Source: Trypanosoma brucei
Taxonomy: Eukaryota
Length of the DNA stretch: 64,000 bases
Assembly (NCBI GenBank): GCA_000002445.1
Contig: CP000070.1
Span: 1,280,001-1,344,000, forward strand
Direction: 5' to 3'
Position 1 is the stretch's first letter. The number at the start of each line of letters is the position of its first letter. The notes under the pieces were generated by a model. It was given only the letters and a program-made list of their open reading frames with translations. It was not told where the DNA came from and ran no database searches. The translations under genes and the position numbers were made by a program. Positions 7,177 through 54,092 of the stretch are shown here, in pieces.

Positions 7177-8489
7177 CCTCATATCATCACAATACATGTT
7201 GTTGTGCTCTAATTTTTTCCCGTATCTGCACACACTTTTGTGTACCTGTATGAATGCGTGCTTCCTATCCTAGTATCTTATATAAATAAGTAAATAAATA
7301 AGAAACATATATAATCCTTTGTGCCTTCTAACACTTCACCTACTGCTCGGCTATTTTATCAACATTTCGATCCCTCCTCTCTTCCCTCATCAATTAATAC
7401 CTAAACTCCGTAACTAAACCTAACTATACGCAAACATGCAGTTTAATATATATATATATATATATATATTCGTGCATTTGTCACCTTCTTTGCGTTCTCT
7501 TCATGCTTTTCATTATTCCTTCTCCAGTTCTTTTCTTTTCTTTCTCTTTCTCTTTACGTCCTTTTACGCAATCCACTCTGTCCTTTACTGTTTCCCTCAG
7601 CAAAGGAAAGGCAAAGAAAAGTCAAAGAAAAGTACCATGCATTGATACCCCTCGCCCCACATGCGCTCACGCACAAGAAAAAAAAAAGAAAATGGAAACA
7701 CAAACACAAACCCACAAGCACAGTGGAAGGGAAAGGGAAAGGAATATAGTGTGGAAATAAATAGGAGAGAAAGAGCGGACGGCGTTCACAGTGAAATTGT
7801 GTTTAAACTCCGTTGCAAGTCGAATAATGATAATAAGTAACAAAGAAAAGAACACAGTGGCTTAAAATCCTCTTGTGAATCAAAGAAACAAAAAAAGAAA
7901 AAGTTTTTCCCACCTACAAGCGTATGTATATACATATAATCTCATATATAAATAAATAAATATATATATATATATATATATTTGTATAGTTACTTATATA
8001 TTTATTTATTTTTATGTCGTAACTGCCATCACGCGAGGGGGCTAAACTCGCTCTCTCCTCCCTATTGTGTTTTCATTTCACCACACAATGTGGTCGTTCG
8101 ATTCCCGCGTATCAACCTTCTTTTTTTTTTCTTTCCTCTCGCACCCATACACACACGCTTACGCATACGTGAACTTCACACATTTCAACGCTATCATGGT
8201 GTCTTTCATTTCACTTCCAACCACTTGCCACATACACACGCACCAAAAAAAAGAAAAATTGAAGCAATAGAGACAAGCCCACCTTCACGCGCCCATTTAT
8301 CTCCGAGTTCCTCGGGAAAAACGCAAATCTAATATGTACATATGCACATATGTTTAGATGCAAGGTCCACCGTGGGTAAATGTCCAAATAAAGACTGAAA
8401 AGATGAAAAGGAATGAAGTCACGCTTCATGGACGTATTCTTCGGTTCATTTTCTCCCACCAACACCAACACCACTACCACCAACACTCC

Positions 8490-26637: not shown

Positions 26638-28035
26638 TCACACCGGATGATGTGTAGCTGCTATGCGTTCTAATGTGCAATACATTTTATTTTCCTCGTC
26701 CTCGCCTAGTAGATCAGAGAGAGTAGAAGTTGAGGGCAAAAACATCGGGCCCTCGTAAACATCGTCCCGTCCCCTTTTGCGGTCAAAGAGCATGCGCCCC
26801 ACGACGGAAGCAGGAAGTCCCTTTATACTGGAGTTTTGTGTCACCGAAGTCAGCATTGCACTGCGGCACATCAGTGTCAACTTGTCACAATCACGGCACG
26901 AGCTGCTCGCGTTAAAAAATGAAAGCTCCATAGGGATGGATTCAGTTAATGCACTATGCAAACTCGCCGCGACATTCTGGTACACAGTTTCCCCTCGCCT
27001 CATAATTTTATTCGGCTTAAAGGGGGTTGTTAAGTTCCCATACCCGTCTACCAACCCGCCTTTTCGGCAGCCAGTCGGCAACAACGTTCCCAGCAACCGA
27101 GGGCAGAGGAATGGGGTATTGTCGGGTGCTGCATTGGCGTTAGACCCTATTAGGGAAGTGCACACAGCAGCTTCGTGTACAATTGGCCCAATAAGACTAG
27201 CATAGGTCGCCTCACATTGAGCCGACACACGTACAGTTCTCTGTGCCCACGAGGAGTTTGTTACGTAATTGCCCAACGACCTCGCATCTTCGGGTGAATA
27301 CACATGAAGGAGTACCAAATACTTCCATATGACTGGTTTTAGCACACATAAGGAACGCGAAGGGGACCTTTCGTTAGCACCTATAGTTATTATTATAGCG
27401 TTTTCGTATGATATCTCCTTGCAAGCCGTAGCAGACTCCTCCACAACGAGGTAGCATCGTGGAAGAACGTCTTCCAACAACATTCCCACCTTTTCATTGA
27501 GAACGCTGGAAGAGCTAGCACGGATAATGTTACCCTCAGCCGATACTGTGTTTCGCACATAGCCCACGACTGCTTCATAACTGTCCTCAGCGGAGCCATC
27601 GCCAGTAACATGCTCCACAACCTCAGTCGACATGGGTAAGCACCAGCTTAGTGGTACGGGCGGATGTCCTAAACTGCAAATACATCCCAATTGCTGGTAA
27701 AGACATCGGCGATCTCTTGTTTTGGGGTACAGTGACGTCAAAAGCGTAATAGCAAACGCCTTGGATGAGGCACGGAAAGGTCCTAGGGGACCGCTATAAA
27801 GGTGTAGCATTTCCCACAGGGGTATGCAGACTGCAGTAGCCAGTGCAGGGCCTTGGTCTCCACAGGACACTAAATCGCGGTGAACGGCGACCATAAAGCG
27901 GTTATAGAGGTCAAGGAGCCGGAAAATAAGCCTCTCTGAGTCGCCGCCAGTTGTCCATTCAATTAGGTTACCGTTTATCTCATCGACCAATTGCTGAGCG
28001 TTGTCATTTTCACCCATATCAAACCCGAGATACAA
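26638..28035 (-). CDS. Hypothetical protein, 465 aa (first gene of the minus-strand array)
   Basis: Long ORF with complex, non-repetitive composition in array orientation. No recognizable motif. Confidence 0.55.
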   Translation of the reverse strand: MYLGFDMGENDNAQQLVDEINGNLIEWTTGGDSERLIFRLLDLYNRFMVAVHRDLVSCGDQGPALATAVCIPLWEMLHLYSGPLGPFRASSKAFAITLLTSLYPKTRDRRCLYQQLGCICSLGHPPVPLSWCLPMSTEVVEHVTGDGSAEDSYEAVVGYVRNTVSAEGNIIRASSSSVLNEKVGMLLEDVLPRCYLVVEESATACKEISYENAIIITIGANERSPSRSLCVLKPVIWKYLVLLHVYSPEDARSLGNYVTNSSWAQRTVRVSAQCEATYASLIGPIVHEAAVCTSLIGSNANAAPDNTPFLCPRLLGTLLPTGCRKGGLVDGYGNLTTPFKPNKIMRRGETVYQNVAASLHSALTESIPMELSFFNASSSCRDCDKLTLMCRSAMLTSVTQNSSIKGLPASVVGRMLFDRKRGRDDVYEGPMFLPSTSTLSDLLGEDEENKMYCTLERIAATHHPV

Positions 28036-31000
28036 AAAGGAAAACGCCTTTTAATTCAGTACTCTTTCCTAAATCTGACACGTGCAAAAAATAAAACACC
28101 GGAAACCCCAGAGCGCATATACCCCCGAATTATCATTAGTCGTAGTTAGAGTTAACACTTTTTTTTAAAAAAAGGAATGGCTACAACACCACCAAACAGT
28201 AGGGAGCATCGGCACACAAATCCCGTAGTGTGAGAACAATCAACACCGCGGATGAACAACGTTGTCAATCTCTTCCCCCCATCACCTCCAAAAAAAAAAA
28301 AAAGCAAACAACACCTAAACAAAAAAAAGCGTGACTCTGTGTCCCCCAAACTATCTCAGTGGCACTTAAACAAATTTGAAAAGAAGACGATTGTACACTG
28401 AAAGGGAGCGACCGTCTTCACATTTCTGCTGTTACATATTGAAATAGAACTAACCATGATTATTTTTTAAAAAAATAATAACAAAAACAATATTAGCCTC
28501 GTATACACGCGGACGGTTGTAGGTAGAATCAAAAAACGCCATGACTGCACTAAATTGGGTAATACTACACGAATTCAGCGAAAGAAAATAGAAACAATAT
28601 TGTTAAGGTAATAACACTAACGGATTCCACCATCACCACCGAGTAGCAACAACAACGAAGCGCAAGGGACCACCTTCGAGCCAAATCATCTTAAAATTAA
28701 CAGACGAAAGGCTCTTCACAAAATCATTTGAATTGGTTCATCTAAAGCGAATTCAAAATTCAAACCATCTTTTTGGCCTTCTGACAATACTCCACAGCCT
28801 CACCTGCGTCCTGAGCGTCTCCGCTTGCACAATCCGGCTGGTATTTATTAAATTTCGCGCATGGAATAACGTTACCACACCAAAATTTATTTGTTCCATA
28901 GTTTATCCACGGTTTGTGAAGCACATCGTTATATATGCTCAACTTAAAGTCGCTGGCGGAGCAACAAACAAAAGAAAAAATAGTTGACTTAAAAAAGGGG
29001 GAACAGAATCTGACCTCCCCAGTGTCTCAGTCACATCGGAGTCAACCGCCTGGAAAATACACAGTTTTCTTTGAAATGTGTATAGCAAATTCGTGTGCTG
29101 CGTCAGCCCCCGCTGTAAGCTCTAAAAGAACGACAATGGCAACAAGCAATTTAGTTTGTAGCAAAATAAGTGGAAGATCGGCATGGACTCCACAACAGTT
29201 AGGCAATACTCTATACCAGACGCGAAGTAGCTACAATATAGCACCGAAGGCGGCAACTCCGTGCGCATTTATTTTTTTTTTAAGCAGCAAATACAATAAC
29301 GCATGTCACTTGTGATGTATGACTTTAAAAGAAGCTGAAATTCGGAGGAGGAACAATCAGTCCTCTAAAAATCGCAACAAATTTAATAGGGGTAGTTGTT
29401 GCATCAGCTTTTCCGCATCAGTTGTAACAAATGTATGTACGGAGAGTCCAATCAGTGCTTGAACAGCAACTCACCCCCATTCCATAGTGCTCGGAAAAGA
29501 CACTAAGGACGCAGCTTATCTAGCACAACCCCTTTTTTTAAAAAAAAAAAGAAACAAAAGAGGTTTTAAAGCCTAGGGTAGCAACAGCAGCCAAACTAAA
29601 CGCACGGATAGCCGATATGACGGCAAGCTACCCGAACAGAAGCAAAGAGACGGAAATTTTTACATATCGTCACAATACCCCCTTCCTCAGCAATGATTTG
29701 AATTTTAAATCAAAAAAAACGTCCGGTACAGCACAAAGTAAAAAATATGATAAAACTCCCCGCATGTGGCGGCAACGCAGTAACTACCTCGCCCACCGAA
29801 ATAATCAGCAAAGGCGTTCTATTTTTTTTTAATGTATACACAAGCACTTACACGAGGGAAGAGTACAATATTTAGCGAAAGACCGGCGGGATACTAACAG
29901 GTAGAAGTCACCTGCAGAGGGGACACTGTCACCACTTGCACCAACGTTTTTTTTTAAAGGTATAGAAGAAAAAAAAGGACATTTAATATTACAACAGTAT
30001 CTACTTATCACAACACCTTTGGGCACACCTTGGTATGGGACAAAAGGGGGGGGATCAAAAATGTACGAAAAGCTTGCAGTTGAACACATCACTAGCATCT
30101 ATCCGGACCCCATATAGATCACATTTCCGAGCTAATTACCGCGCTAGTAACTACACATGTCAGTTTAGCATCACATATTTGATAGTCACCAAGCACAAAC
30201 AGTTGAGGATAAATACTGTTGGATGGACCCCAATATACAGATATTTATTCACTAATGAATAATAAGTTACAAGCGAATAAAAAGCATGTGGAAAGCTCCA
30301 ACATGGCCTCATCCAACTTAATATGTCAGCTGAAGAGTAGTGGTAAACGAGGGTTTGCACCGCTAACATTAATAAGGAAACAACAACCATGTCCCACAGA
30401 AGACCGAGGCTTTGCCTCTGGGGAGAGAGCAAGAGGGTAACGCCCGCGTGACTGTTTACAACTATTACAGTCAAGAAACGCACGAGCAGCAAAACCATCT
30501 AAACGAAGATAGATCAGTGTTACGCTCCCGTGAGAAAAATAAACTGCTACGGCGACATTCTCCCATTTCAACCACCCAAAGAGCCCATTCGTCCATCATG
30601 TCACCTGGTTGTCCCAAATACACCTGGAAAGCGAAACTTACAGCTGGGCATCAGCGGGTCACAAAGAAGGGAAAATCCAACAGAAACTGAAGGCCTCAAC
30701 AGCACGTGGTTTACTCTAATGTCGTTCTGGCTACAATCAGACGATCAGTAATCAGCTATCAGATAGAAACGGAAGGAACAAATAGCGCTAAAAGCCCTAC
30801 AGTTCCCTGTTTTCTCCACGTCGCAGCGAGCTACCCACTCCTGCACAGCGCGGATATTACACGCAACTACAGTACGTCACGAATGTCCCCGCACAAAAGA
30901 AAAAGTAGTAAGGGCGGTGAAAACGTCAAAGTATTTCTAACCCCATAATACGAACGCACAATCACTTCAACGAAAAATTGTTGACAAACCCTCATTATAT

Positions 31001-32913
31001 CACGAAATGCGATTGTGCGATATAACACATTCCAAATATCGAATTAGTCTGCACAAAATTGCCCACCGTAAGTTGCATCAATTTTTTCCTCGCTGTTGCT
31101 ACAGCAGACCATCGATTCCAAGTACGTTAATATGCGCACGGATAGCTGTCCATGCGGGTTTCAGTGAGGTGTTGCACTTGAACAAGTTCACTTCCGGTCA
31201 TCTTTCGATGACACAGAGCGGAACATCTGCATATTTAAAAAAGCGTGAACAAGTAAGTAAAAAAGCCGAGCCGCCTCGGTGATGCGTGACAGTAGCGCGA
31301 ACGTTAGTGGTTCGTTTCTTCTTCCGGTGATATTGATATTAAAATCCCAGAAAGATAATTCACGCTACAGCCAATCTTCCCTTTGCGCGGACACCTTCAT
31401 TACCCCATCAAAAAGATATTACACCGGTTAAATCGAAAGGGTTTGTAAAATCAACAGAACTTTTGCGAAGGGCGATAGGAACGGGAAGCACATCGACGAA
31501 CATTCGCATAGAAGCAGTGATCAGACCCTTCGTAAGCTGCATAATCGTTAAGAAAGAGATGACACACCTCTCCCTCGTTGTGCACAACCGCACCTAGCAC
31601 CACGAGATGCACGTACAGTTGTGGAGCGTATCAGCAGGGAAAATGACAGGCAGGCCCGGCACATGTACATTATAGCGCAGAAGGGAGGGGTGAAGCGGCA
31701 CCCACCCAGCGCTCCACAGTTCCAGACCACGCAACGTTTGGACCCTTTCAAACAAAGGCCCCGTACCACGATAACGTCCCACCCATCGCACGCCGCATCG
31801 TGGTCGGCACCCACTGGCCCCAACTCATACAACCTAAAGGATACCAACGCGCAGTACCGGGCTAAGCGAGGGCAAATTCCCCATACGCGCCACATCTGCC
31901 GTTCTCGGTAAATACGGGCCGTACGTGCACAGGTTGTCAAGCACCCCTCCAGTCTTCAAGCGCAAAGAACAAAAACTTCGTTCCTCCTCCGCCGCAGCAT
32001 TCCTACTGCGACGCCAGCGGCCGGCGCAGGGCGAACCTGCGGCAGCTGACCATCCCCCACGCCCCACGACAAGCTCCCATTCCACCACCATGCGGCCATG
32101 CCCCAGTGGTACAACACCGACGGAACTGACGCACCCCCATTTTCACTGGCGAATTTCGAATGCACCAATGGCGCGCCACGCACGGTGGCCTTTACAGTGT
32201 GAATCCGCTCCATCCTCCGGGAGAGAAGGTGCACGGAGTGAGCAAACACCGTCGACCAAACTATCCGTCCCGAAACCTTCAGAGGCCTGAAGACAAGCAT
32301 TTCTTGTTTTTTCGTGGTACTCCCCGCCTTGCACTACCACACCGTCCCGACAGCGACCCTCTGCGCATCTTGGTTGCCACACCCACCCTATTGAATGGAG
32401 GAGTCCCTATTGCGAGCGGTGAGCCTAAACTAACCGCACAGGTGGCCCCAAATGGGCAAAGCACGTTGTCGTATTTCCCCCTTCTTCTTAATATGTGTGT
32501 CTTTCCCTCCTTATACATGGCATTTGCTTTTGCTCACCCTGAAGGAGGGGCCCTTTTTCTTGGTCTCGCTTCTTATTGTTGTGTTTTGGTCAAATAGTGT
32601 TTTCCCGTGAGCGTACCACGTTGTAACACCATCCCTTCAAATCATTTAATCACTCATGCGTGCGATGTCCCGGAGGGCTCGATTTCTCTTCCATCACGCG
32701 GGATGACCCTCCCCTGACCACAAGCTGAACAAAACATCCTATTGCTTGTTGCACCTCAAGAGGTGATGGGTCGGCCGCGCCTTCTTCAGGATGTCGCTAC
32801 CGGTCCTGTTGGACAGCCCTCCGTCTACAATGCTCCCCGTCGGACCATGTAACATTTCCATCGTGCTTTTATCATTTATGAATGTTGAGAATAACCACGG
32901 TCCGGCCTCGTAG

Positions 32914-32941
32914 CGCACACACACACACACACACACACACA
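32914..32941. repeat. (CA)13 microsatellite (reads TG on the minus/sense strand of the left array)
   Basis: Direct read: gcgcacacacacacacacacacacacac. Confidence 0.9.
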
Positions 32942-35199
32942 GCTGCACCAACCCCTGATGGAATCTCCAGAATACTCATGTGACCCAGTCCGGTGAAAAA
33001 ACCGCTCCTAACTTTACCAGCATGAGCCTGGTTATTATGGACACTTCTTGCGCACACAACTCCACGACTCATACAGGCTTCGTTGTGTGGCCCGGTTACT
33101 TTGGCGCCTTCCTCAACGCATACCTCTACGGGTCACCATAAGATTTAGTGAAGGGCGCGTTATCCCCCGAAACGGTATGCGCCCGCTTTGGTAGTTTAAA
33201 CTTCAATGAAGTCATCTTTTGATCACTAGGTATCGTGGACAGGTCCAGCCCGTGGGGTTACATTTCAGCTTCCGTCAACCCTCCTCTGTTTGCGTTAGCA
33301 TAAGGTTGCCGGCGGGGAAAAGGTTTAATATATTCTGTTTACATTGGTTAGTAACTCAGTGGATCTATCGTTCACGGCCATGAACAGAACAAAGTCGGAC
33401 ACCGTTCTTTTTGCCACACGGTACGGCTATATGGGGCCTTCCCAAAGTACTGTCGGTTTATAATGACTCTCGCCATCTTGTTGGGTGAAAGTTTCTTACC
33501 CACCACATAATTTGTAGATTAGAAAAAAACTTTCTCGGCCGCTCAGAAAATGGCAACATTTCCCATGGGTTCAAACTAACGAGTGTAGAGTATGAATTTC
33601 ACCGTGGCGAGCACCGTCGATTCGTACCAAGTTGCGTCTCCAATCAACTGAGTTATGGATCCTACTGCCAAATGTTGGCGCAGAAACCTTTCTCTTTTGT
33701 ATACGCAACTGACAGTCAACAGAGTCCACAAATCTCCTTTGAATCAACTACTGCATTGCTTTGTAATTGGCGCAGGTGGTCGCTGTTAGTTTTTGACGAT
33801 GCCATGACAGAAATCCCCTTGCTTTCCCCTAACGCCAGTTCAATAGCTTCACACTTCCACTTCCCGACACTCCTCAGCATTTTCGATTCCCGTTGAGTAG
33901 TTGTTTACCTGTAGTTTAGCCCGTTTACCTCCATGTGCTTTAGTTGGTACACCATACACGCCATTTTCTTCAGCAGAAGAAGGAAATTTCGATCTTCCTG
34001 TGGCAACAATCGGCTCAACCATGCGAAACAGTTTGTGTTTCGCGTCTTCTCAACCTCTGGCACGTTCTTTACCGGGGCATCCGAGAGTTTTGTCTGTCGT
34101 TGGTGGCACATTTTTGACCTTGGTTGCGGCTACCGCTCCTTCTATCAGCGTCTTGCCGTTTATCACTGGTGGAAGGGTTGGTCCCCATTCTGGGGCGTGC
34201 ACCGCGTTCGAAAACTTGCGGCCGCTTTTTTTCTGTTGCCGACGATTTGGGTACATGATCTTTCCATTTTTTAAAGGCTAGTACATGCATGACATGTATC
34301 CTAACTTCAAAGAGGTCGCCTTTCCCTTGCACCTGTGGGAGATTATCAGCTTCCTAGTTTAGTTCTGAAAAACTACTGTTCATAGTAAGAGAAATTACTG
34401 GTCTACAGCTATGGATATTCCTCACTAGAGAGTCGCACATTGCTACGTGCATCCTGTCCCCATTTCAGTTTATACACGCTTCCATCTTGCAGAGCACTTT
34501 CCTCTTCCCTGTTACCCACCGTTTCTTGGATTATATACAGGTTGCCTCTTTTGATGAGAAGTGGGAGCTTCGATGAGCGGTTGGCATTATTTTTTCAACT
34601 CCTGACCCGGCGATGGCATGGAAGACTCTCGAACTGCGGTTGTAGTTCAGCCTGAGCGCGGCGTTCTTCTGCGGCACATCACAATTCTATTGGGAACTAC
34701 TGTCCGGGGCGAATTTGGTTCTTCAATTTTTTCTCCTTGCAATTGTCCCTGTGTGGACGACTCCCATTTCGTCATCCACAAACCAATTTGAGGTTGTCTT
34801 GCCTCTGTGAGTTCGTGAGATATGTTTGTCTTATGTAGGATGGTGGAAAATAACGTTCACCCGGTTAATGATCTCAGCCTTTCCGTGCCCGTTGTGGCGT
34901 TCTCCAGAAAGCGGTTGGGCGCAACGGTGAGCTTTACATGGCGGTCAACCGCCACCATGGTGGTTGCGTCTCCCATCAATTTCGGAGTTGACGACCCCTT
35001 TAGTAACTTCCACTACGTCCAGGACGAGGCATAGGCTCTGGGGACTCCGTTTTCAGTGCGTGCGTGTCCGCAACGCTTATATCCCATCACATTAAAGCAA
35101 AGGCTTTCCCCTCGGCTGAACCGCGTTTCTCAGGGAACGCAGAAAGTCACTTCGCCCTTTCGCAACGTTTCCACCGGGACGACCTCCTTCGATTGGGGC

Positions 35200-36100
35200 C
35201 GGAACATTTTATATCTCACTGAGCCGCGCGGGTGCCGGAACCAGTGGATTGACTGGGACCTTCGGCAAGTAACAGAGTGAGGCCGCGGGGATCTTGCGTA
35301 TGGACTTGTTGGCATGTGCTTCGGTGCAACTCGAGCTGCGTTGGACCCCCGGTGGCCGGCAGTCCGCCGTGCGTCGGCGCGGCCGCGGGTAACCCGAGGC
35401 AATTGCCATTCCATTCTTTCTGGGAGGGCTTTGACACGTCGGGGTTTATGTGTACGGCCGGCGGCTAACCTAACTGCCACGAAAGAACAACTCCAATAAG
35501 TTGTTTCCGTCTTGATTCTCGAGGTTTCAGGGATCCCGTATTAAACCATCCGGCGTGGGGGCGCACGGTCAAAGTCTTCTTTCCACATGCGGTGTGATTG
35601 ACTGCGAGGTCGTGGGTACCCGGAGATAGTTTGAGGGTAGCTCCCCTTTGTAAGCTTTCCCCCCGCCCGCGCTACGGTTACTTCCGTCTTCTTTCCACAA
35701 TGGGATATTCCCAGTGGAATGGGTTCCGGGGCCTTATCACCTCTCGTGCGGGAAAATTCTGACTCTTTGTGCCCTGTGGGGTTGTCTTTGATGACGGGGT
35801 CGGAGTTATCTTGAGACAATTTCACATTTCCTTCCCCCAATACGTTCTGTCGGGCGATGTGTTCTCGTACGGTTGCCCCTGCGTTGCGTTCAACTGGTTG
35901 ATCCTCGCGCCCGTTGCGCCTTACACGGAGTTTTGAGCCCCCCTTCAGGGTTCTGGGCGTTACCGGCAGCTGGGTGGTGGTTGCGGCTCCTTGCCATGAG
36001 TTTCATGTCCAGTGGACGCTGGAAGACATCTGAGGCAGCGCTCATTTTGATAGTATTGGCTATGTTGCTGTTTCTGACGTGTGTGTGGGAGGCTTCGCTT
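35200..36100. other. GC-rich island inside the strand-switch region (short direct repeat GGCCGCGGG at about 35281 and 35381); function unknown
   Basis: Local GC is visibly above 60% against an A/T-rich surround. No ORF with coding character. No match to known snRNA, 7SL or rRNA that I can recognise. Confidence 0.3.
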
Positions 36101-36184
36101 AGGTCGCTGATGGTGTTGCCGCTTTTTAAAAGTTCGGTCGAAAGGCGCGATGGGGGTGAGGCGCCGTGTGTGCACATAAACTGT

Positions 36185-36208
36185 GTTTGTGTGTGTGTGT
36201 GTGTGTGA
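36185..36208. repeat. (GT)11 microsatellite on the plus (sense) strand of the right array
   Basis: Direct read: tgtttgtgtgtgtgtgtgtgtgtgtgatg. Confidence 0.9.
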
Positions 36209-37901
36209 TGGAGGAGCGACTTAGCTCCACCAACGCTGAGAGAAGTGGTTTTAATCTAGTGGTTACTGCCGCTTTGGATTTCCCCTACTGGCGCCAATTC
36301 TGTTATTTGTGCCAGGTAATGGATAATTTGGGATGAGGGTATTGTTTTAATGTTGATGAGAGGCCGCACATGTTTTTTCCCTCTCGCCAATAGCTTGCAT
36401 TTCCAAAAATTTATTATATACCCTGAAAAATTGGCGGCATTTACCTCAATACACTGCTGCGTTCTGTATCTGGACGGTTGGTGCGTACCCCAGAAAAATA
36501 CGTAGCTCCTTTGAGTTATGTGTGGATGTTGTCCATTTATGCCACTGTTTCCCCTACCTATGTGGGGGGACTTGGTATCTTTGTGTTTTTGCCCATTATG
36601 AGGTAAAGCTATTGACGTGGTTTGCTGCGCACTTTCTGTTAAGTATGTTCGAGCTATCGTGTTCATGCGATCAATTTACGATCCCTATAACGGGTTATAT
36701 ATTGGGTTTCTTAGTTGTTGTTGTTTTTGAAGAAAGCGTGTGTCGGGGACGAGCGGCTGTTACAAACTAGGAGTTAAGACCGTCAGTCGTGTATATTTTT
36801 TGCGGTGCTGAATTCATGTGCCATCACTTACATCTTTTTCGTATGATTAATTTTTTTTTTTTGCCGAATCAGATTATCTGTTTATTGGAGGGTATTGGAG
36901 TGCCTTCGCTTTTGTTTAGCATTTTCCCGATTTCTGTTACTGGTTGGTTGGTCTACCGTTTTCCTGCGTAAATGGCGTAGGCGACGTGCTAACATAATTT
37001 GTGTTTCACTTACTGCGGTGCTGTGGGCAAGAAAAAGACCTACTTATGGACGTGAGCCTTTCGAACTATTGGAAAACAGTGGTTTCACTCAGTAAGGCTG
37101 CATCAGTTTTGCTACTGTCGTACATTTGAGAGTGCTCTCGACGCTTTTCGACCGAATTTTTTTTTAAAAAACTTCGTTGAAGTGTTTTCACGGCCATGCG
37201 CGTATGAATAGTAGGAACATTCGTGTATATATGTGCGAAAGTTTCTGTTTTTTTTGTTGATGATTCAGTCTCTTGACTGACGCCTTACCCTTTTTGGTGT
37301 TGATGTATCATATTAGGCCAGGAAAAGAAGGGGGAGGGGTTCACCAATCTACATTCGTACCGACCATTGCCACTAGAATCCATATGGGTAAATATTTGTA
37401 ATCAACTTTTGAGGAACTAGTACTATATCTTATTTCTCTAGAAGGAGGCTAACTACTGAGTGGGGTGATCCACTTTATAGTTTATAACTCACGGACAAAC
37501 AAACCCGTTCCTATCCTTGATTGAGTTTGGCTTGTTCTACCGGCCCTTATAAACACAAAGCTACTGTTGTCGGAAATTCGTAAAGAAAGCCGACTGTCGT
37601 TTCTTTGCTTTTTCGTTATACGTGGTTGCACTCTTTGTTGATACTTTTGTCAATGTTATCTTATGCATAATGCTAAAGCACGAAATGTACCCTAATTCAA
37701 GTTGTTGTAATGTGTTGCTGGCTTCGACATATTACAGATGAATGCCCCCTTTCTACTATAAGACACCGTTTACCTCCCCCCTGACAACAGTGGAGAGAGT
37801 TTGCCAGATACGCCGCCAGCGGTTAAGTCCGTTGTGGAAATAGCATCAACAGGATGGATGTAGGCGATGATGAGTAAGCGTTAAATCTTCTCATAGACGT
37901 T

Positions 37902-39251
37902 GTGAGAAACAGTGTCTCACAGTTAAATAAATATTGGCTCGCTGGTGTGGGGACTTCTTGCCACCAGAGCCTGCGTGGGCTGACAATGTTGTCGGGCATT
38001 ACCTTTGAAATATTTCTGTTTAATTTTGAGATATATCATGATTTTTCTTCCCCCCTCCTTTTTTCTTTAGCCATTCGCATCGTGATTGCTTGTGGAATTC
38101 CGTCAATGACAAACTCTTCAGTGCAGCAGGTTGGTTGCCGGGTAACATACATATGGCTTTCTGGAAAGGATTCGCATCACGATATTCGCAGCAAGGACAG
38201 AACCATATATATTTCACCTGATGATTTGGAAAAGGACCCCAAAGAGCTTCTCCGTTTGGATATGTTCCCTGTATGGAATTTTGACGGTTCCTCAACAGGT
38301 CAAGCTGAAGGATTAATAACTGAAATTCACATCAAGCCTGTAAATGCGTACCACTGTTGCATTCCCCGTGCTTCCTCTTCAGTACCATGGATAGTTGTAC
38401 TCGCTGAATGCTTTTTACCGACCGGCGAACCCACACCCGATAACTCGCGGGCGGTAGCTCGTCGCATATTTGATAAAGGGCTCGGTACCCATCCATGGTT
38501 TGGGATGGAACAGGAATATTTCTTGGTAAAAGACGGACATCCCTATGGTTGGTGTCCCACTTGTCCCCCCGCGTCCCAGGGACCTTACTACTGCGCAACT
38601 GGCTCTGAATGTATCCGAGGTCGGAAACATGTTGATTTGCATTATGAGGTTTGCCTGCAAATGGGACTCAAGATATGTGGCACAAATGCTGAAGTTGCAT
38701 TTGGACAGTGGGAATTTCAAGTCGGGCCGTGCGAAGGGATCGAAATGGGTGATCAGCTTGTTGTGGCTAGGTGGGTGTTGCTACGAATTTTGGAGCTTGA
38801 AGGGTTGGATGCAGATTTTCGTGCAAAGCCTATTTTGGGCGACTGGAACGGTAGCGGACTTCACACCAACTTCTCAACAGAGGCCACTCGGGCACCGGGT
38901 GGTTTGGAAGTCATTTATCAATATATTGAAAGATTAAAGGAAACTTCGTCCAAGGATATAATTTTTTATGGAGTTGACAATAACGAGCGGTTAATAGGGA
39001 AGCACGAGACCTCAAAATTAAATGAAACAACGTTTGGAATAGGTACACGGGGGACCTCAATTCGAATTCCTACCGCTGTGGCTGCCGCACAAAGTGGTTA
39101 TATGGAGGATCGCCGGCCTGCGGCAGGGGCTGATCCATACTTGGTGTCATCAAGGCTCTTTGCATCATGCCTATCAGTGGACGCCGTTGAACTGGATTTT
39201 TCATCTCCTCGACACGAGCGGGAGTGGATGGCAAGTACTTCTAAGGTGTAG
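37902..39251 (+). CDS. GS: Glutamine synthetase type II; the homologous region starts at Met69 (nt 38106), and the preceding 68 codons are non-homologous
   Basis: GS-II signatures: YIWLSG...RSKDRT, FDGSSTGQAEG (matches the FDGSSTGQA signature), WFGMEQEY, NGSGLHTNFST, RGTSIRIP. The upstream 68 aa are hydrophobic, low-complexity, and unrelated to GS. Confidence 0.85.
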   Translation: MRNSVSQLNKYWLAGVGTSCHQSLRGLTMLSGITFEIFLFNFEIYHDFSSPLLFSLAIRIVIACGIPSMTNSSVQQVGCRVTYIWLSGKDSHHDIRSKDRTIYISPDDLEKDPKELLRLDMFPVWNFDGSSTGQAEGLITEIHIKPVNAYHCCIPRASSSVPWIVVLAECFLPTGEPTPDNSRAVARRIFDKGLGTHPWFGMEQEYFLVKDGHPYGWCPTCPPASQGPYYCATGSECIRGRKHVDLHYEVCLQMGLKICGTNAEVAFGQWEFQVGPCEGIEMGDQLVVARWVLLRILELEGLDADFRAKPILGDWNGSGLHTNFSTEATRAPGGLEVIYQYIERLKETSSKDIIFYGVDNNERLIGKHETSKLNETTFGIGTRGTSIRIPTAVAAAQSGYMEDRRPAAGADPYLVSSRLFASCLSVDAVELDFSSPRHEREWMASTSKV

Positions 39252-39804
39252 CGTCTAATAGGAAAATGTTCTTGAATGAGTTTGTGCAAAGAATGTGTCC
39301 GCGAAGCTCGGGCGTATCGTTTTTTCTGTCAGCGGAGCGTCAACTTATTTAACTTAACTCAACCGATGTTGAGAAATCCCTCTGTCGTTTAGGAACTTTG
39401 TTGTGCATTCATTTTTTTATTGTTACGTTATTCTTTGACCTTTTTTTTTTTAACTGTCAGTTTGTTCGTATATATTTTTTCTATGTGATAACACTAATAT
39501 CTGGTAGAGTGTCCTGGAGAGGGAGAGGGAGAGAAAGAGAAGATTAATCTAATCCGTTATAAATGAACGCAATGGTTGTCGGTTGAGTTTTCGTAACCAA
39601 AAAGAAATCGAACGCCTTTGCTCTACCCGTTGCTGCTGTTCTTGGGGGGGGGGGGGAGGGGAGCCTGTCATAGGCTATATGACCACTGTCCCCATTGTGG
39701 TGTTGGAGATCTCTTTCCTCCTTAACTCTGAGCTGTTATGATCCCTCTTTATTCATTTTATTGGTTTCCATGACGCGGGTAGGTGCCAGACAAAGGTAAC
39801 ATTC

Positions 39805-40992
39805 ATGCCTGGTTGCCTTTCGGCGCTGGCGTCGCATGTGGAATCAGCATCTGTGGTCAGTACCAAGTCGAAACGTAAAAGGAAAAGTAAGAAGAAGGCT
39901 TTGTACGACCAATATCTTGCTGACTCAGGCAGCGAAGACTCATCTGAACTGAGCAAAAATGTGAACGGAACTCCAAGCAAGTATGAATATGAAGAATTTG
40001 AACCCGGTATGGATATAAATATTCTCATTCAACAAACTATTCAGAATGTTGTGCAGAGCGTATGTTTAGAAGATTGTGACGGCCTATCACAATTTGGCGA
40101 CAATGATTTAATTTGTTTTAGCGCGGCAGTGAAACATAATAGTTCTATTCTTTCTCTTCAAATCCGGTACCTTGATGTTTCGGATGTGTCACTTGTACCT
40201 CTGTGCCGTGCACTTGAGTGCCATCCTTCTATTCGGGCTCTGGATCTATCGGGGACCAGGGGTGGCCGCCCCTCTGTCAAAGCGGTCTTTCAACTTGTGT
40301 GCACAAATCCTAATATATTGTTTGTTCGCCTGGACGATACGATGGTATCCCCACACGACGCTGAGGATATAAGGGTTGCTACCCTATATAATGCTTTGGC
40401 ATGCCCTGATCCCACTAACAATCCCTTTTATTTAGGGTTGTTGCGAAAAATAAGCGACATAGAAGAGGAAAAGCAGAAATACAAAGAACAGCTATCGGAA
40501 CAGTTGTGGCTTTTTTCAAGTCGACCCCAAAACAATTTAAATTCGGGTAAGGAGAAAAAGGTTGGATTCAGTGAAAAGGTATCAGAGTCTCGAATAGGCG
40601 CTGATGTTTGTGCACAGTTTATGTCTGGGAGGTGTGCATACGGGTCACGGTGCAGGTACATTCACCCTGATAAGACCACCGCACTTAGGAACGCAATTGC
40701 CCTTAGTAAATATAAGATGGCGCAGATGATCGATGACGACGCGAAATCAGTTAAAAGCAGCGCAACTTCCCTTGGACAGACTGGAAGGGGTAGGTTGCAG
40801 AGTAGACTTCGTCCAACGAATTTTACTATGAATAAAGTGCATTGTGCGGTCGCCACTGTGCATGAAGGTTCGGTTGAACAGTGTAGTGCAGGCTCGAACG
40901 AGGAAGCGGCTGACGTAGCTTTGAGGTTGTCCATTTGGACATTTGCTCTTGTTACTGCTGTTTGCAGTGTTGTGCTGATCGTGGTTTACTGA
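39805..40992 (+). CDS. CCCH-type zinc-finger protein with leucine-rich-repeat-like region and a C-terminal tail-anchor TM
   Basis: C-x7-C-x5-C-x3-H motif (CAQFMSGRCAYGSRCRYIH). Basic N-terminal KRKRKSKKK. LRR-like L..L..L periodicity (LSLQIRYLDVSDVSLVPLCRALECHPSIRALDLSG). Extreme C-terminus LRLSIWTFALVTAVCSVVLIVVY is hydrophobic. Confidence 0.7.
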   Translation: MPGCLSALASHVESASVVSTKSKRKRKSKKKALYDQYLADSGSEDSSELSKNVNGTPSKYEYEEFEPGMDINILIQQTIQNVVQSVCLEDCDGLSQFGDNDLICFSAAVKHNSSILSLQIRYLDVSDVSLVPLCRALECHPSIRALDLSGTRGGRPSVKAVFQLVCTNPNILFVRLDDTMVSPHDAEDIRVATLYNALACPDPTNNPFYLGLLRKISDIEEEKQKYKEQLSEQLWLFSSRPQNNLNSGKEKKVGFSEKVSESRIGADVCAQFMSGRCAYGSRCRYIHPDKTTALRNAIALSKYKMAQMIDDDAKSVKSSATSLGQTGRGRLQSRLRPTNFTMNKVHCAVATVHEGSVEQCSAGSNEEAADVALRLSIWTFALVTAVCSVVLIVVY

Positions 40993-43905: not shown

Positions 43906-44688
43906 ATGGTGTCACTGAAGCTCCAAGCTCGCCTGGCAGCGGACATCCTGCGCTGCGGCCGCGGCCGCGTGTGGTTGGACCCTAACGAAGCAGTAGAGAT
44001 TCGCAATGCCAATTCACGCAAGAGTGTACGCAAGTTGATCAAAGACGGTTTGGTAATGCGAAAGCCTGTTAAGGTGCATTCGCGCTCCCGCTGGCGCCAG
44101 ATGAAGTTGGCGAAGAGCATGGGACGCCACGAGGGTACCGGCCGCCGCGAGGGTACTCGCGAAGCACGCATGCCCAGCAAGGACCTTTGGATGCGCCGAC
44201 TTCGCATTCTTCGCCGTTTGCTTCGCAAGTACCGCGAAGAAAAGAAGATTGATCGGCACATCTACCGCGAGCTGTACATGAAGGCAAAGGGCAACGTGTT
44301 CCGCAACAAGCGCAACCTTATGGAGCACATCCACAAGGTGAAGAACGAGAAGAAGAAGGCTCGTCAGCTTGCTGAGCAACTCGCGGCGAAACGCCTAAAG
44401 GACGAGCAGAACCGCCGCAAGGCACGAAAGCAGGAGCTGAAGAAGCGTGAGAAGGAACGTGAGCGTGCACGCCGTGACGATGCCGCTGCTGCTGCCGCTG
44501 CCAAACAACGAGCTGCCGCGAAGAAGGCTGCCGCTCCCGCTGCCAAGAAGGGTGGCAAGGCTGTTGCCCCCGCCACTCCTGCGAAGGCCGCCCCTGCAAA
44601 GGCCGCCGCTGCGAAGGTTGCCCCAGCGAAGGCGGCTCCCGCAAAGGCCGCCAGCCCTGCCGGGAAGAAGGCAGCGGGTAAGAAGTGA
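43906..44688 (+). CDS. RPL19: 60S ribosomal protein L19e, copy 1, with C-terminal KAAPAKAA repeat tail
   Basis: [28 protein letters not shown]...[29 protein letters not shown]...[28 protein letters not shown] is canonical L19e. The Ala/Lys/Pro repeat tail is typical of trypanosomatid ribosomal proteins. Confidence 0.95.
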
Positions 44689-45589: not shown

Positions 45590-46372
45590 ATGGTGTCACT
45601 GAAGCTCCAAGCTCGCCTGGCAGCGGACATCCTGCGCTGCGGCCGCGGCCGCGTGTGGTTGGACCCTAACGAAGCAGTAGAGATTCGCAATGCCAATTCA
45701 CGCAAGAGTGTACGCAAGTTGATCAAAGACGGTTTGGTAATGCGAAAGCCTGTTAAGGTGCATTCGCGCTCCCGCTGGCGCCAGATGAAGTTGGCGAAGA
45801 GCATGGGACGCCACGAGGGTACCGGCCGCCGCGAGGGTACTCGCGAAGCACGCATGCCCAGCAAGGACCTTTGGATGCGCCGACTTCGCATTCTTCGCCG
45901 TTTGCTTCGCAAGTACCGCGAAGAAAAGAAGATTGATCGGCACATCTACCGCGAGCTGTACATGAAGGCAAAGGGCAACGTGTTCCGCAACAAGCGCAAC
46001 CTTATGGAGCACATCCACAAGGTGAAGAACGAGAAGAAGAAGGCTCGTCAGCTTGCTGAGCAACTCGCGGCGAAACGCCTAAAGGACGAGCAGAACCGCC
46101 GCAAGGCACGAAAGCAGGAGCTGAAGAAGCGTGAGAAGGAACGTGAGCGTGCACGCCGTGACGATGCCGCTGCTGCTGCCGCTGCCAAACAACGAGCTGC
46201 CGCGAAGAAGGCTGCCGCTCCCGCTGCCAAGAAGGGTGGCAAGGCTGTTGCCCCCGCCACTCCTGCGAAGGCCGCCCCTGCAAAGGCCGCCGCTGCGAAG
46301 GTTGCCCCAGCGAAGGCGGCTCCCGCAAAGGCCGCCAGCCCTGCCGGGAAGAAGGCAGCGGGTAAGAAGTGA
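45590..46372 (+). CDS. RPL19: 60S ribosomal protein L19e, copy 2 (identical to copy 1)
   Basis: Identical 260-aa translation to 43906-44688. Confidence 0.95.
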
Positions 46373-51152: not shown

Positions 51153-54092
51153 GTGCGTTGGAGAGGGGTAATGCACGACGGGTCGCAGCAAGATGCGTCC
51201 CACGGAGCGACTGCAATGAACAGTGGTGTGGTTCCGGATGGCCAGTGGAGGGTGGATGAAAATATCATTATCCGAGAGATACTTGCAATGAATACACTTG
51301 CCATGCAGAGGTGCGATACGGGGGCACTCGATGAATCAAGTAGTATTCTTACTGATGCCTACATGAAACTGCACAACGATACATCAACCGGTGAATCCCA
51401 GGGGTTAGACGCGGTACGTGCAACGACACTCAACAACCTTGGTGTTGTTGAATGCCACCGCGGGCAGCATCGACAGGCGCTAAGTCATTTCGAAGCCGCA
51501 CGGCAGTTGGAGGAGGCGTGGAGTGCCGCCTCCCCTTCCGTGGCTTTGAACAGCTGTGCTGCATATAATGCACTTGGAATGTATGACAAAGCCACGGCTG
51601 CTGCAATGGAAACTATCAATATGTTGCGCAGGTTGTTTGCCCAACAAGAGTTTCAGGGATCGCCTACCGGTGAAGTTGCTTCTACCCCCGGTGGAAGCTG
51701 TGGCGCACAACCTCAGAGCGATGGGATGAATGTTGCCAGTTCCGACAACGCAGCACTGTGGGGTGCCGCCTGGCACAATTTGGCGGTTGCGCAAATCAAC
51801 ACGGCAAAGAGCAGCACTGATCTGAGTGAGTACACCAATGCTGCGGCTCTGTTCCAGAATGCTATGCGTGCGACGCAAGAGTTGTTAGGGTATGACCATC
51901 CGATGACAAAGAGTGTGACGGAGACATACCGTGCGGTACGCAACGCGCTACGGACGCACGGCGTTTATAAACAACACCACACTCTCTTTACGGCACCTTT
52001 GAGGCCTGCGGACCCGCGTGATGAGGCGGATGATATGGAGCAGTATTTCAAGCAATGTGGCATCAAGTCGAGGAGACGGGCTTTGGAAAAGTATTACCGC
52101 GATTTGACCATCACGTTCTGTGGTGCTGTGACGAATGGAGTGAAACTGACTGAGCGGCTCGATCCCACTCCGTACCCCCTGGCAAAAGATGTGTCATTTC
52201 GCAGGAGTGGTCAAAAGGATTCACTGCGAATGTTGCGAGCAATACCGACGGGGAGCACTATTGAGAAAGCATGTCACCTGTACGGTAATCCACATCCTTT
52301 GCTATTTTCGTTACCGCCTGAGTACCGTGCAAGTGAGGTGGGGACTGCAAAGAGTATCCCAAAAGCTGCATCAGCTAATTCTTTTGCAAAAGTGCCTATG
52401 AAACCCAATGCTCTCGCAAGCTCCAGAAGACCACAACCGAAGCGTGAGCAGATATTTAACGAGGGGCAAAGGAGAATGCAAATTCAGTCGAATATGCCAA
52501 AGCAGCAGCAGCGCCAAATCGGTCCGCCATCGACTGTGGTGAACTATTCACGCGCACTACAGGAAACCCCGGGAGCTGCGCCAACTATTCCTCAGATTAC
52601 CCCTCTGAGTTACAAAGCGAGCATCGATGAGCACTGGCAACCACCAGTTAATCAAACTCCGGCACCTGTGAATTACAACTGGTCCGTTCAACAGCAGGCA
52701 CCAAATACTGTCCCAACGGCTCCGCTTGTTTACCAGCAGGCATCAGTTAATCAAACTCCGGCACCTGTGAATCACAACTGGTCCGTTCAACAGCAGGCAC
52801 CAAATACTGTCCCAACTGCTCCGCTTGTTTACCAACAGACGCCAGTTAATCAGGGTCAAGCACCTTTGAATCACAACTGGTCCGCTCAACAGCAGGCACC
52901 AAACGTTGTTCCAACGGCTCCGCTTGTTTACCAGCAGGCATCAGTTAATCAAACTCCGGCGCCTGTGAATCACAACTGGTCCGTTCAACAGCAGGCACCA
53001 AACACTGTTCCAACTGCTCCGCTTGTTTACCAGCAGGCACCAGTTGATCAAACTCCGGCGCCTGTGAATTACAACTGGTCCGCTCAACAGCAGGCACCAA
53101 ATACTGTTCCAACTGCTCCACTTGTTTACCAACAGGCACCAGTTAGTCAGGGTCAAGCGCCTGCCGTGGCCAGTCAACCCCCCCTGAACCAGATGCCGAA
53201 CGTTTCTCAAGGAGAATCATTTGATCACCAGCAAGGGATGAGTGGACGACAGGAACCTTTGCGCCAGCAAGAACAGCAGATGCTGGCCTCATGCCGCCGG
53301 CAAGCTCCCGCTGACCTTGGCCAGGGAGCTGCAGCCGACCACCGTTCGCATCAGGAGTCGGTCTCTAATAATACCCTGGTAGTTGGTGGACAGGAAGAAA
53401 AAAAGAAGAAGGACCATGTGCAACCTGTTCCCGCTGCACCCGCGGCTGTTCCTGCTGGGCCCGCGGTCGGTGAGGCTTCGAAGCCTGCAGCGGCGGTTCG
53501 AGGGCCCCTTCCACCCCTGAAATCACCACCAGGTGGTCGTGTGATAGCAAAGGCTGAGACATCCGATGGAGTTGAGGGAATCGTTAGTGCGCCACGCAAA
53601 GCTTCGTCCGGAGGGCAAACAGCGACATATGATGCACGGAGAGCCTACGAGCAAATAAAGTACATTCTACTGGCCGACCCACCGGCCGAGGCTTCCCGGA
53701 GAAAATCTAAGCAAGACCGTAGCAAAAAGGATTCTGTGCCTGCAAATGTGCCCCAACAGGAATGTGGCCCCTGGACCGATAACGCAGCACCCGCAGCCGG
53801 GGAGTCACCAACGGAGCATAAGCCTCACCGTCTATTTGATGCTTTATGGGTTTCGGGCGGGGGCCCAGCTGACCAGGCCCCGCTGCGCGTAGTTGGGAAG
53901 CCCAGCTACTTTGTGTCATCCGTCCTTGACATGCGCCAGGGTCAGGCGGAATTCCCTGAGGAGGTGATGCAGATGGTGGCGGAAAATAGTCGTTCCTCTT
54001 GTTCCGATGTGGAGGAAAGACATTCTCAGACGATGGGGCCCGCGCAACACTCATGCACTGAGGCTGGAATACCCACACATGATCAGTCATGA
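51153..54092 (+). CDS. TPR-like repeat protein (N-terminus) with an internal array of six 33-aa Q/P-rich repeats and a Pro/Ala-rich C-terminal region
   Basis: N-terminal helical repeats (LNNLGVVECHRGQHRQALSHFEAARQLEE; AYNALGMYDKATAAAMETI; WHNLAVAQI) are TPR-like. The central repeat block has the shape VNQTPAPVN[HY]NWS[VA]QQQAPNTVPTAPLVYQQ[AT][SP] x6. Confidence 0.75.
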   Translation: MRWRGVMHDGSQQDASHGATAMNSGVVPDGQWRVDENIIIREILAMNTLAMQRCDTGALDESSSILTDAYMKLHNDTSTGESQGLDAVRATTLNNLGVVECHRGQHRQALSHFEAARQLEEAWSAASPSVALNSCAAYNALGMYDKATAAAMETINMLRRLFAQQEFQGSPTGEVASTPGGSCGAQPQSDGMNVASSDNAALWGAAWHNLAVAQINTAKSSTDLSEYTNAAALFQNAMRATQELLGYDHPMTKSVTETYRAVRNALRTHGVYKQHHTLFTAPLRPADPRDEADDMEQYFKQCGIKSRRRALEKYYRDLTITFCGAVTNGVKLTERLDPTPYPLAKDVSFRRSGQKDSLRMLRAIPTGSTIEKACHLYGNPHPLLFSLPPEYRASEVGTAKSIPKAASANSFAKVPMKPNALASSRRPQPKREQIFNEGQRRMQIQSNMPKQQQRQIGPPSTVVNYSRALQETPGAAPTIPQITPLSYKASIDEHWQPPVNQTPAPVNYNWSVQQQAPNTVPTAPLVYQQASVNQTPAPVNHNWSVQQQAPNTVPTAPLVYQQTPVNQGQAPLNHNWSAQQQAPNVVPTAPLVYQQASVNQTPAPVNHNWSVQQQAPNTVPTAPLVYQQAPVDQTPAPVNYNWSAQQQAPNTVPTAPLVYQQAPVSQGQAPAVASQPPLNQMPNVSQGESFDHQQGMSGRQEPLRQQEQQMLASCRRQAPADLGQGAAADHRSHQESVSNNTLVVGGQEEKKKKDHVQPVPAAPAAVPAGPAVGEASKPAAAVRGPLPPLKSPPGGRVIAKAETSDGVEGIVSAPRKASSGGQTATYDARRAYEQIKYILLADPPAEASRRKSKQDRSKKDSVPANVPQQECGPWTDNAAPAAGESPTEHKPHRLFDALWVSGGGPADQAPLRVVGKPSYFVSSVLDMRQGQAEFPEEVMQMVAENSRSSCSDVEERHSQTMGPAQHSCTEAGIPTHDQS
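52647..53165 (+). repeat. In-frame 99-bp tandem repeat array (about 5.2 copies, slightly degenerate) inside the 51153-54092 CDS
   Basis: The 'gttaatca' motif recurs at 52647, 52746, 52845 and 52944, giving a 99-nt period. Further copies follow, with third-position and a few replacement differences. Confidence 0.85.

Follow-up and report, generated by a model that had tools for sequence, protein, structure and literature searches.

Two polycistronic units of Trypanosoma brucei TREU927 chromosome 7 part between Tb927.7.4960, which is read leftward, and the glutamine synthetase gene Tb927.7.4970, which is read rightward. An exact protein match of 395 aa assigns the locus to chromosome 7 of the T. 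brucei group. Positions are given here in the window, the whole 64-kb stretch of DNA that was analysed; they equal the Tb927_07_v4 coordinate minus 1,280,000, an offset that fits the annotated ends of the glutamine synthetase ORF and two splice sites to the nucleotide. With ATG as the start codon, as in eukaryotes, and the splice site as mapped, the gap without CDS runs over 28018-38105 (10,088 bp; chromosome 7 positions 1,308,018-1,318,105). In Lister 427-2018 it corresponds roughly to CM010678.1 1,462,900-1,473,000. The long ORFs left of 28.0 kb all lie on the minus strand and those right of 37.9 kb all lie on the plus strand, which bears out the divergence of two arrays described in an earlier note on this DNA. 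The region contains the following features.

26638..28017, minus strand: CDS of Tb927.7.4960 (ORF), 459 aa, kinetoplastid-specific, without Pfam domain, heading the leftward polycistronic unit
28018..31500, minus strand: left arm, AT-rich (GC 0.42), with a T/G-rich sense strand and seven strong minus-strand polypyrimidine tracts (composition, polypyrimidine map, 10-mer matches)
28165..29531, minus strand: Tb7.NT.56, a published trans-spliced, polyadenylated transcript of 1,366 nt (Kolev 2010 Table S7)
31501..32900, no strand assigned: left GC-rich island, GC 0.55, with raised SNP density (composition, divergence)
32916..32941, minus strand: (CA)13, which is (TG)13 on the sense strand of the leftward unit, 7-20 units between strains (repeat search, strain comparison)
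32942..35000, no strand assigned: switch centre, with the skew minimum at 33075 and the most SNP-dense stretch (skew, divergence)
35001..36180, no strand assigned: right GC-rich island, GC 0.56, with plus-strand GT/G-rich 10-mers from about 34.96 kb (composition, 10-mer map)
36182..36207, plus strand: TGTGTT(TG)10, an interrupted (TG)13 on the sense strand of the rightward unit, 8-11 units between strains (repeat search, strain comparison)
36208..38070, plus strand: right arm, GC 0.42, plus strand strongly G/T-rich, no strong polypyrimidine tract before 38039 (composition, polypyrimidine map)
38039..38071, plus strand: polypyrimidine tract and AG, with the spliced-leader acceptor of glutamine synthetase mapped at 38071 (sequence, predictor, Kolev 2010 Table S1)
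38106..39251, plus strand: CDS of glutamine synthetase Tb927.7.4970, 381 aa from the first ATG past the splice site (Pfam Gln-synt_N/C), heading the rightward unit

Tb927.7.4960 was identified via a homologue search (one residue differs, so there is no exact match); it has orthologues in T. equiperdum, T. vivax, T. cruzi and T. theileri, and our literature search found no mention of it. The identity of Tb927.7.4970 as glutamine synthetase is given in PMC4285177, and Kolev 2010 Table S1 sets the start of its transcript at 1318071. Table S14 of the same study names Tb927.7.4960 as the first ORF of a minus-strand 'Divergent' unit and Tb927.7.4970 likewise as the first ORF of a 'Divergent' Pol II unit; 5'-triphosphate RNA was enriched at every divergent transcription unit in that study, whose Table S14 includes both flanking genes. 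The ORF strands, the tRNA and Rfam scans and the label of Kolev 2010 together give opposed arrays with neither a Pol III gene nor an rRNA gene in between. The interval belongs to the divergent Pol II strand-switch regions of T. brucei and has already been catalogued.

Absence of genes and a published internal transcript

That 28036-37901 holds no coding gene, as the earlier note had it, was upheld by ORFs, codon usage and Pfam, all of which were without coding signal. The interval has no ORF longer than 145 aa, and its longest stop-to-stop frame (155 aa) is at chance level (block shuffles 163 +/- 33). A frame-specific codon-usage scan trained on the 18 genes of the window scored the interval at -0.034 compared with 0.170 for the window's genes, with no 300-nt window of the interval reaching the coding 25th percentile, and none of the 91 open frames of at least 55 aa, joined by X spacers for the scan, matched a Pfam family at E<=0.1. 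Hidden protein genes were rejected on the ORF lists, these two scans and the shuffle test on the longest frame. A structured RNA gene (snoRNA, snRNA, tRNA and others) was rejected as well: ARAGORN found 0 tRNA genes in the interval, and Rfam gave 0 matches at the gathering threshold and 0 at E<=1 over 27900-38200. Searches for internal or window-wide repeats, a larger palindrome or duplicated halves found none, with only the microsatellites forming a pair, and blastn, tblastx and tblastn detected no significant cross-species similarity upstream of the T. vivax, T. cruzi and T. theileri orthologues. Two further candidates were tried and rejected, namely remnants of the T. theileri MatE gene or of T. 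vivax ORFs, to which no similarity was found, and a degenerate retroelement or pseudogene, given that the interval is without Pfam domain, has a codon score at background and lacks homology to the intervening genes of T. theileri and T. vivax.

The earlier note had seen room here for unannotated non-coding transcripts; such transcription does occur in the arms, but it had been described before. Kolev 2010 Table S7 lists Tb7.NT.56 at Tb927_07_v4 1309531->1308165 on the minus strand, and its splice acceptor (29531) directly follows a minus-strand polypyrimidine tract and AG. The longest ATG ORF of this transcript is only 48 aa, and it is therefore probably non-coding. Further splice acceptors on the minus strand are predicted at 31593, 30866, 30417, 30028 and 29934.

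Strand skew, composition and divergence

The cumulative (G+T)-(A+C) curve of the entire window reaches its minimum at 33075, and the sense-strand excess of G over C and of T over A reverses sign inside the gap. On the plus strand T exceeds A from about 32.5 kb and G exceeds C only from about 35 kb; the stretch from 32.5 to 35 kb is therefore pyrimidine-rich rather than G/T-rich. The composition switch proposed at about 33.0 kb is confirmed as regards the A-rich plus strand at 28-31.5 kb and the position of the skew minimum, and refined as regards the onset of G/T richness. GC content in the arms (0.42) is close to that of ordinary non-CDS DNA (0.427), compared with 0.48-0.56 in the core, and CpG enrichment of the kind that marks CpG islands is absent, with observed/expected ratios of 0.89-1.03 everywhere. 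The left arm looks like ordinary transcribed intergenic or leader DNA. The two sides are not true mirror images of one another, as the GC island lies downstream of the left repeat and upstream of the right one.

The GC-rich core (31.5-35.25 kb) carries 30.1 variable sites/kb; the arms have 9-10, while other intergenic DNA has 5.9 and CDS 3.0, and the excess in the core has an odds ratio of 3.9 (p=9e-19). This divergence speaks against conservation of a central element and is in keeping with a gap free of constraint; the SNP density has other possible sources, among them recombination, R-loop-associated damage and old haplotypes. We offer as a tentative suggestion, in which we place a minor share of confidence, that this 3.7-kb core, which evolves 3-5x faster than other non-coding DNA of the same chromosome, is the only stretch without productive Pol II transcription. 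If this is true, missing transcription-coupled repair or initiation-associated damage would have left a population-genetic footprint in the core, and this kind of trace could be used to map the start sites of every divergent region with no data beyond the sequence. The core also falls largely between the sense-strand (GT)n repeats.

Start regions and alternative readings

Divergent regions are marked by twin peaks of H2A.Z, H2B.V, H4K10ac and Pol II at the 5' ends of both units. Published H2A.Z and RPB9 ChIP and 5'-triphosphate RNA data for T. brucei are deposited under GEO GSE98061, and the supplements of Staneva 2021 contain no coordinates for this locus. We interpret the interval as an ordinary divergent strand-switch region, most likely with two separate, opposed, dispersed start regions, and put the probability of this reading at about 0.85. 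The region would hold two oppositely oriented Pol II start regions rather than one bidirectional core, with leftward initiation around 31.5-32.9 kb, rightward initiation around 35-36.2 kb and, between them, some 2-3 kb of unconstrained DNA that would be weakly transcribed or untranscribed; we infer both these positions and the untranscribed centre from composition and divergence. Wedel 2017 reported initiation at the 5' ends of start regions and a non-transcribed gap between divergent start regions. The G/T richness of the sense strands, including the two (GT)n repeats, would represent the known strand asymmetry of trypanosome transcription units, which is strongest at start regions, where GT-rich elements promote initiation in one direction and the deposition of H2A.Z. 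The outer arms (28.0-31.5 and 36.2-38.1 kb) would be transcribed leader DNA, processed to non-coding by-products such as Tb7.NT.56 ahead of the first mRNA splice sites, and the right arm would be the leader of a primary transcript that is discarded on trans-splicing, a leader fate described in Kolev 2010.

The alternative that survives best, which we nonetheless judge unlikely, is that the centre is mainly an ORC1/CDC6 binding site or replication origin and that the switch results from replication asymmetry, an arrangement that can coexist with two start regions. In the portion of Tiengwe 2012 available, ORC1/CDC6 binding is placed in the middle of divergent regions, flanked by their two H4K10ac peaks, and divergent regions lie at the centre of 19 of 42 early origins; the same portion holds nothing specific to chromosome 7 at 1.31 Mb, and it gives about 80% of ORC1/CDC6 sites as not being active origins. 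The skew at this locus, moreover, tracks transcription direction over the whole 64 kb, coding DNA included, as has been described for transcription units, which argues against replication as its source.

The earlier note had put forward the mirrored pair of (GT)n microsatellites as a candidate bidirectional promoter core centred on the switch. Both repeats are present (with coordinates shifted by 1-3 bases from those first noted), each lies on the sense strand of its own unit, and the pair brackets the skew switch. The premise that GT-rich sense-strand elements are proposed promoter motifs is also sound, as they are a published signature of start regions (Wedel 2017). [quoted passage not shown] The mirrored arrangement, however, is not specific to the switch point, as evidenced by the (GT)n runs of at least six units in the window, four of four of which are on the sense strand, including equal runs at 5311 and 7153 that sit within the left unit, 25 kb from the switch. 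The two flanking repeats are 3.2 kb apart with the fastest-evolving, least-conserved DNA of the region in between, their lengths vary freely among strains, and the orthologous T. vivax and T. theileri intervals contain no (GT)n of at least six units. In addition, all 12 of the 12 start-region fragments tested by Wedel 2017 had activity, so a discrete core is disfavoured, and Cordon-Obras 2022, as relayed in PMC13532274, describes two separate unidirectional promoters per divergent region with poly-GTGT outside the essential 75-bp core. Taken together, these points count against the two microsatellites forming a single bidirectional core, a reading that we regard as quite improbable.

The wider set of Wedel 10-mers follows the strands of the two units, being almost only minus left of 33 kb (32915, 32055 and 28033-28994) and plus right of 34.9 kb (20 matches, 34958-37604), but an ordinary intergenic stretch at 5-8 kb is denser (57 minus matches), and the list therefore does not single out start sites.

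The least credible reading is that the size of the gap and its two GC-rich islands are relics of decayed genes or of a degenerate retroelement formerly between the units: the GC of the islands (0.55-0.56) is near that of CDS (0.52) and not that of ordinary intergenic DNA (0.43), the orthologous genes are separated in T. theileri by a MatE transporter gene along with other ORFs and in T. vivax by several predicted ORFs, and gene callers report short ORFs here in other strains, but no open frame of at least 55 aa has a Pfam match at E<=0.1, frame-specific codon bias is absent, the longest open frame is no longer than chance, tblastn and tblastx against protein or DNA of the corresponding T. theileri and T. 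vivax intervals found no similarity and microsatellites are the sole repeats, internal or window-wide.

Comparison with known systems

T. brucei has roughly 70 divergent regions. The gap had been called unusually large, a description that does not hold against published values of 5-10 kb for T. brucei divergent regions, which have two oppositely oriented core promoters (PMC11796357), and of about 10 kb for the width of start regions (PMC5579346). The orthologous genes stand 22.4 kb apart in T. vivax and 15.8 kb apart in T. theileri, so that of the three intervals measured the T. brucei gap is the shortest. Gap size, GT strand bias and the non-coding transcript are thus ordinary for T. brucei. 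The locus, divergent start sites, the GT strand signature and the internal transcript are all in the literature, and the analysis carries little weight as a discovery; it serves as a worked example in which the skew minimum, GC shift, SNP density and polypyrimidine map alone are enough to tell the core of a trypanosome start region from its transcribed arms.

With the divergent strand-switch regions of T. brucei (Siegel 2009; Kolev 2010; Wedel 2017) the interval shares divergent polycistronic units around a gene-free gap of about 10 kb, a mid-gap switch of sense-strand G/T skew, coding-strand GT-rich and G-run 10-mers, and poly(A)+ non-coding by-products ahead of the first mRNA. Nothing substantive differs, long perfect (GT)n on both sides being a minority feature; Dataset EV1 of Wedel 2017, for instance, gives 18 counts of GTGTGTGTGG in the first fifth of 199 start regions. 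With the synthetic and natural GT-rich promoters of Wedel 2017 (EMBO J) it shares 10-mers of the enriched list on the correct strands, at 32915 (minus) and 36078-36187 (plus); those promoters are composites of many G/T-rich 10-mers over 210-416 bp, whereas only short clusters are present here, which we regard as candidate elements. Kolev 2010 draws an analogy with the dispersed divergent promoters of mammalian CpG islands, and the shared features are divergent transcription with broad initiation, a core richer in GC, and short unstable RNAs upstream. The mammalian case differs in that CpG is not enriched here and the units are polycistronic and trans-spliced. The 75-bp core promoters of T. brucei Pol II reportedly contain three defined motifs at the Pol II peak. 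The arrangement of two unidirectional promoters per divergent region, as relayed from the work on these sequence-specific core promoters (Cordon-Obras 2022, Cell Rep), is the model that best fits the anatomy of this locus.

Boundaries and coding content of the divergent interval

Positions in Tb927_07_v4 were converted to the window by subtracting 1,280,000, because the glutamine synthetase (GS, Tb927.7.4970; PMC4285177) ORF and spliced-leader acceptor in Table S1 of Kolev et al. 2010 (1317986-1319251 and 1318071, respectively; PMC2936537) match an ATG ORF spanning 37986-39251 and a polypyrimidine tract followed by an AG whose last base is 38070. This offset was confirmed by a second, independent splice site (29531), which agrees to the single nucleotide. 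The window accordingly corresponds to positions 1,280,001-1,344,000 of T. brucei TREU927 chromosome 7. GS carries Pfam Gln-synt_N/C domains and forms the right edge of the gap. Its spliced-leader site, 38071, falls downstream of the annotated start at 37986, which makes the ATG at 38106 the real start (381 aa); the misplaced start was already flagged in Kolev Table S1 (PMC2936537), and the 421-aa version is still in place in the gambiense entry. Over 21 kb the window is ~98.9% identical to T. brucei gambiense DAL972 and T. brucei Lister 427, and the 395-aa zinc-finger protein at 39805-40992 has identical copies on chromosome 7 of both strains and in T. equiperdum.

To the left of 28.0 kb every long ORF is on the minus strand, and to the right of 37.9 kb every long ORF is on the plus strand. 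The main features of the gap are:

28018-38105: CDS-free gap of 10,088 bp, as delimited by eukaryotic start codons and the splice site mapped for GS
29531-28165, minus strand: Tb7.NT.56, a published novel transcript
31.5-36.2 kb: core, GC 0.48-0.56, with GC islands (0.55-0.56) at 31.5-32.9 and 35.0-36.2 kb
32916-32941: (CA)13 microsatellite
36182-36207: TGTGTT(TG)10 microsatellite

The earlier note had called the interval ORF-free, and indeed it holds no ORF longer than 145 aa. Its longest stop-to-stop frame (155 aa) is at chance level (163 +/- 33 in block-wise shuffles), and a frame-specific codon-usage score trained on genes of the window averaged 0.170 in coding windows versus -0.034 in the gap, where no window reached the coding 25th percentile. 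Searches of the gap found no Pfam family at E<=0.1 in any of its 91 open frames of at least 55 aa, no tRNA gene and no Rfam match, E<=1 included. Farther into the right unit, a 260-aa ORF is duplicated in tandem (43906-44688 and 45590-46372, copies >99% identical over ~790 bp); each copy contains a 15-nt repeat in five units, CCTGCGAAGGCCGCC, and orthologous calls carry no recorded Pfam family. The 979-aa ORF at 51153-54092 includes a 99-bp unit repeated ~5 times (89% match; 52642-53233), with a predicted 33-residue Q/P/V-rich protein repeat as product.

Transcription within this interval is already published. Kolev et al. 2010 reported enrichment of 5'-triphosphate RNA ends at every divergent unit and poly(A)+ RNAs lacking the spliced leader upstream of a unit's first mRNA (PMC2936537), and their Table S7 lists Tb7.NT.56 (1309531->1308165, minus; 1,366 nt; ~1 RNA per cell; PMC2936537), whose longest ATG ORF is 48 aa. 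On the minus strand, CCTCTTTTGTTTCTTTTTTTTTTTAAAAAAAG directly precedes base 29531. A crude polypyrimidine-plus-AG predictor recovered both mapped acceptors, 29531 and 38071, together with five further strong minus-strand candidates at 29.9-31.7 kb, and returned no strong candidate on the plus strand at 34.8-38.04 kb. The window contains six T(5-9)A(6-11) blocks (28159-28173, 28463-28475, 29533-29550, 37157-37171, 6011-6026 and 7133-7144) and not one reverse-order A(n)T(n) block; because the T(n)A(n) motif is palindromic, a polypyrimidine tract is available on both strands. Read on the minus strand, the 28159-28173 and 29533-29550 blocks supply the polypyrimidine tract and A-run/AG of splice acceptors; the 29531 acceptor is mapped, and the one for Tb927.7.4960, at 28159-28173, is putative.

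Composition, divergence and GT-rich elements

The composition switch reported in the earlier note is real and sharp, yet it is staggered, with T exceeding A from ~32.5 kb and G exceeding C only from ~35 kb. Across the whole 64-kb window the cumulative (G+T)-(A+C) curve reaches its minimum at 33075. The arms (28.0-31.5 and 36.2-38.1 kb) have a GC content of 0.42, versus 0.427 in the window's other non-coding DNA, and each shows a strong sense-strand G/T excess; the core shows no CpG excess. Counted against Lister 427 and DAL972, variable sites per kb amount to 30.1 in the core (31501-35250), 9-10 in the arms, 5.9 in other intergenic DNA and 3.0 in CDS (core versus arms plus intergenic DNA, odds ratio 3.9, p=9e-19), with clean alignments and a predominance of transitions. 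Strand-switch regions were already counted among the variable parts of T. brucei genomes by Jackson et al. 2010. Two 250-bp patches are extremely divergent, 33251-33500 (16-17 differences to both other strains) and 35001-35250 (16 differences, gambiense only), a pattern that points to old haplotypes or local conversion tracts and away from a uniform relaxation of constraint.

Both microsatellites exist, and they form the sole inverted repeat joining the two halves of the gap. Their proposed link to GT-rich promoters is sound, since 10-mers from the start-region list of Wedel et al. 2017 map strand-consistently, on the plus strand from 34958 to 37604 (cluster 35971-36301) and on the minus strand at 32915, 32055 and 28033-28994. 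These 10-mers (Dataset EV1) show a coding-strand enrichment of 6-fold or more, and many of them are (GT)n-like and cluster within the initial fifth of start regions. Four observations speak against the further proposal that the mirrored pair is itself a bidirectional promoter core. The window has four (GT)n runs of at least six units, every one on the sense strand, and the runs at 5311-5328 and 7153-7176 belong to an unremarkable intergenic stretch within the left unit; unit number varies across strains (7-20 left, 8-11 right); the T. vivax and T. theileri intervals contain no such run; and the 3.2 kb between the repeats is the least conserved DNA of the region. In Cordon-Obras et al. 2022, as relayed by PMC13532274, poly-GTGT elements likewise lay outside the essential 75-bp promoter core.

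That intergenic stretch, 4700-8490, is an AT-rich 3.8-kb gap (GC 0.34-0.38) with three C9-C11 runs, two (CA)n repeats, the published transcript Tb7.NT.54 (6086-5543, minus) and the window's densest Wedel sense-strand 10-mers (57 matches); its composition resembles that of start-region arms, yet no internal start site is listed there. No 10-mer of the Wedel 2017 list is more strand-biased than poly-G. A G13 run on the plus (sense) strand at 39644-39656 begins 12 nt beyond the published GS transcript 3' end (39632), and a plus-strand G8 run at 30046-30053, antisense for the left unit, is the window's only G or GT run that violates the sense-strand rule.

Size, conservation and comparison with published start regions

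The earlier description of the gap as unusually large did not hold. Divergent T. brucei units are separated by 5-10 kb, with two oppositely oriented core promoters inside (2024 paper, PMC11796357), start regions are ~10 kb wide in Wedel et al. 2017, and the gap is the shortest of three orthologous intervals measured. The strand switch is conserved, with the 4960 and GS orthologues also divergent neighbours in T. vivax (22,386 bp between CDS starts, one contig) and T. theileri (15,764 bp, with a MatE gene and small ORFs within); in T. cruzi, the 4960 orthologue is preceded on its own strand by amastin genes. Comparisons of the gap with T. vivax, T. cruzi and T. theileri revealed no similarity, either as DNA or in translation. 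In T. theileri, GS is duplicated in tandem and the MatE gene adjoins the strand switch. GC-rich blocks (0.56-0.66) occur in the intervals of T. vivax (L010 and L008, 1-10000 each) and T. theileri (L012/L013), and the T. theileri G+T skew minimum lies in a 1-kb bin with GC 0.56.

Most probably, the gap contains a pair of Pol II start regions, each dispersed and directional, which, judging from sequence, would fire leftward from ~31.5-32.9 kb and rightward from ~35-36.2 kb. The centre between them would be unconstrained and transcribed weakly or not at all, and the arms would serve as transcribed leaders that coupled trans-splicing and polyadenylation convert into non-coding RNAs such as Tb7.NT.56. 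By analogy with Tiengwe 2012, ORC1/CDC6 binding at the centre of the gap is plausible.

Existing knowledge is extended only modestly, by the sharp peak of divergence over the GC-rich core. The divergent region between Tb927.7.4960 and GS is already known, and Kolev Table S14 (PMC2936537) lists both units as Divergent (Tb927.7.4960 -> Tb927.7.4690, minus; Tb927.7.4970 -> Tb927.7.6000, plus). Size aside, the earlier observation was accurate, and its interpretation, apart from the unsupported microsatellite claim, fairly restates the published model; Cordon-Obras et al. 2022, as summarized in PMC13532274, describe each divergent region as holding two separate promoters, both unidirectional, with a 75-bp core.
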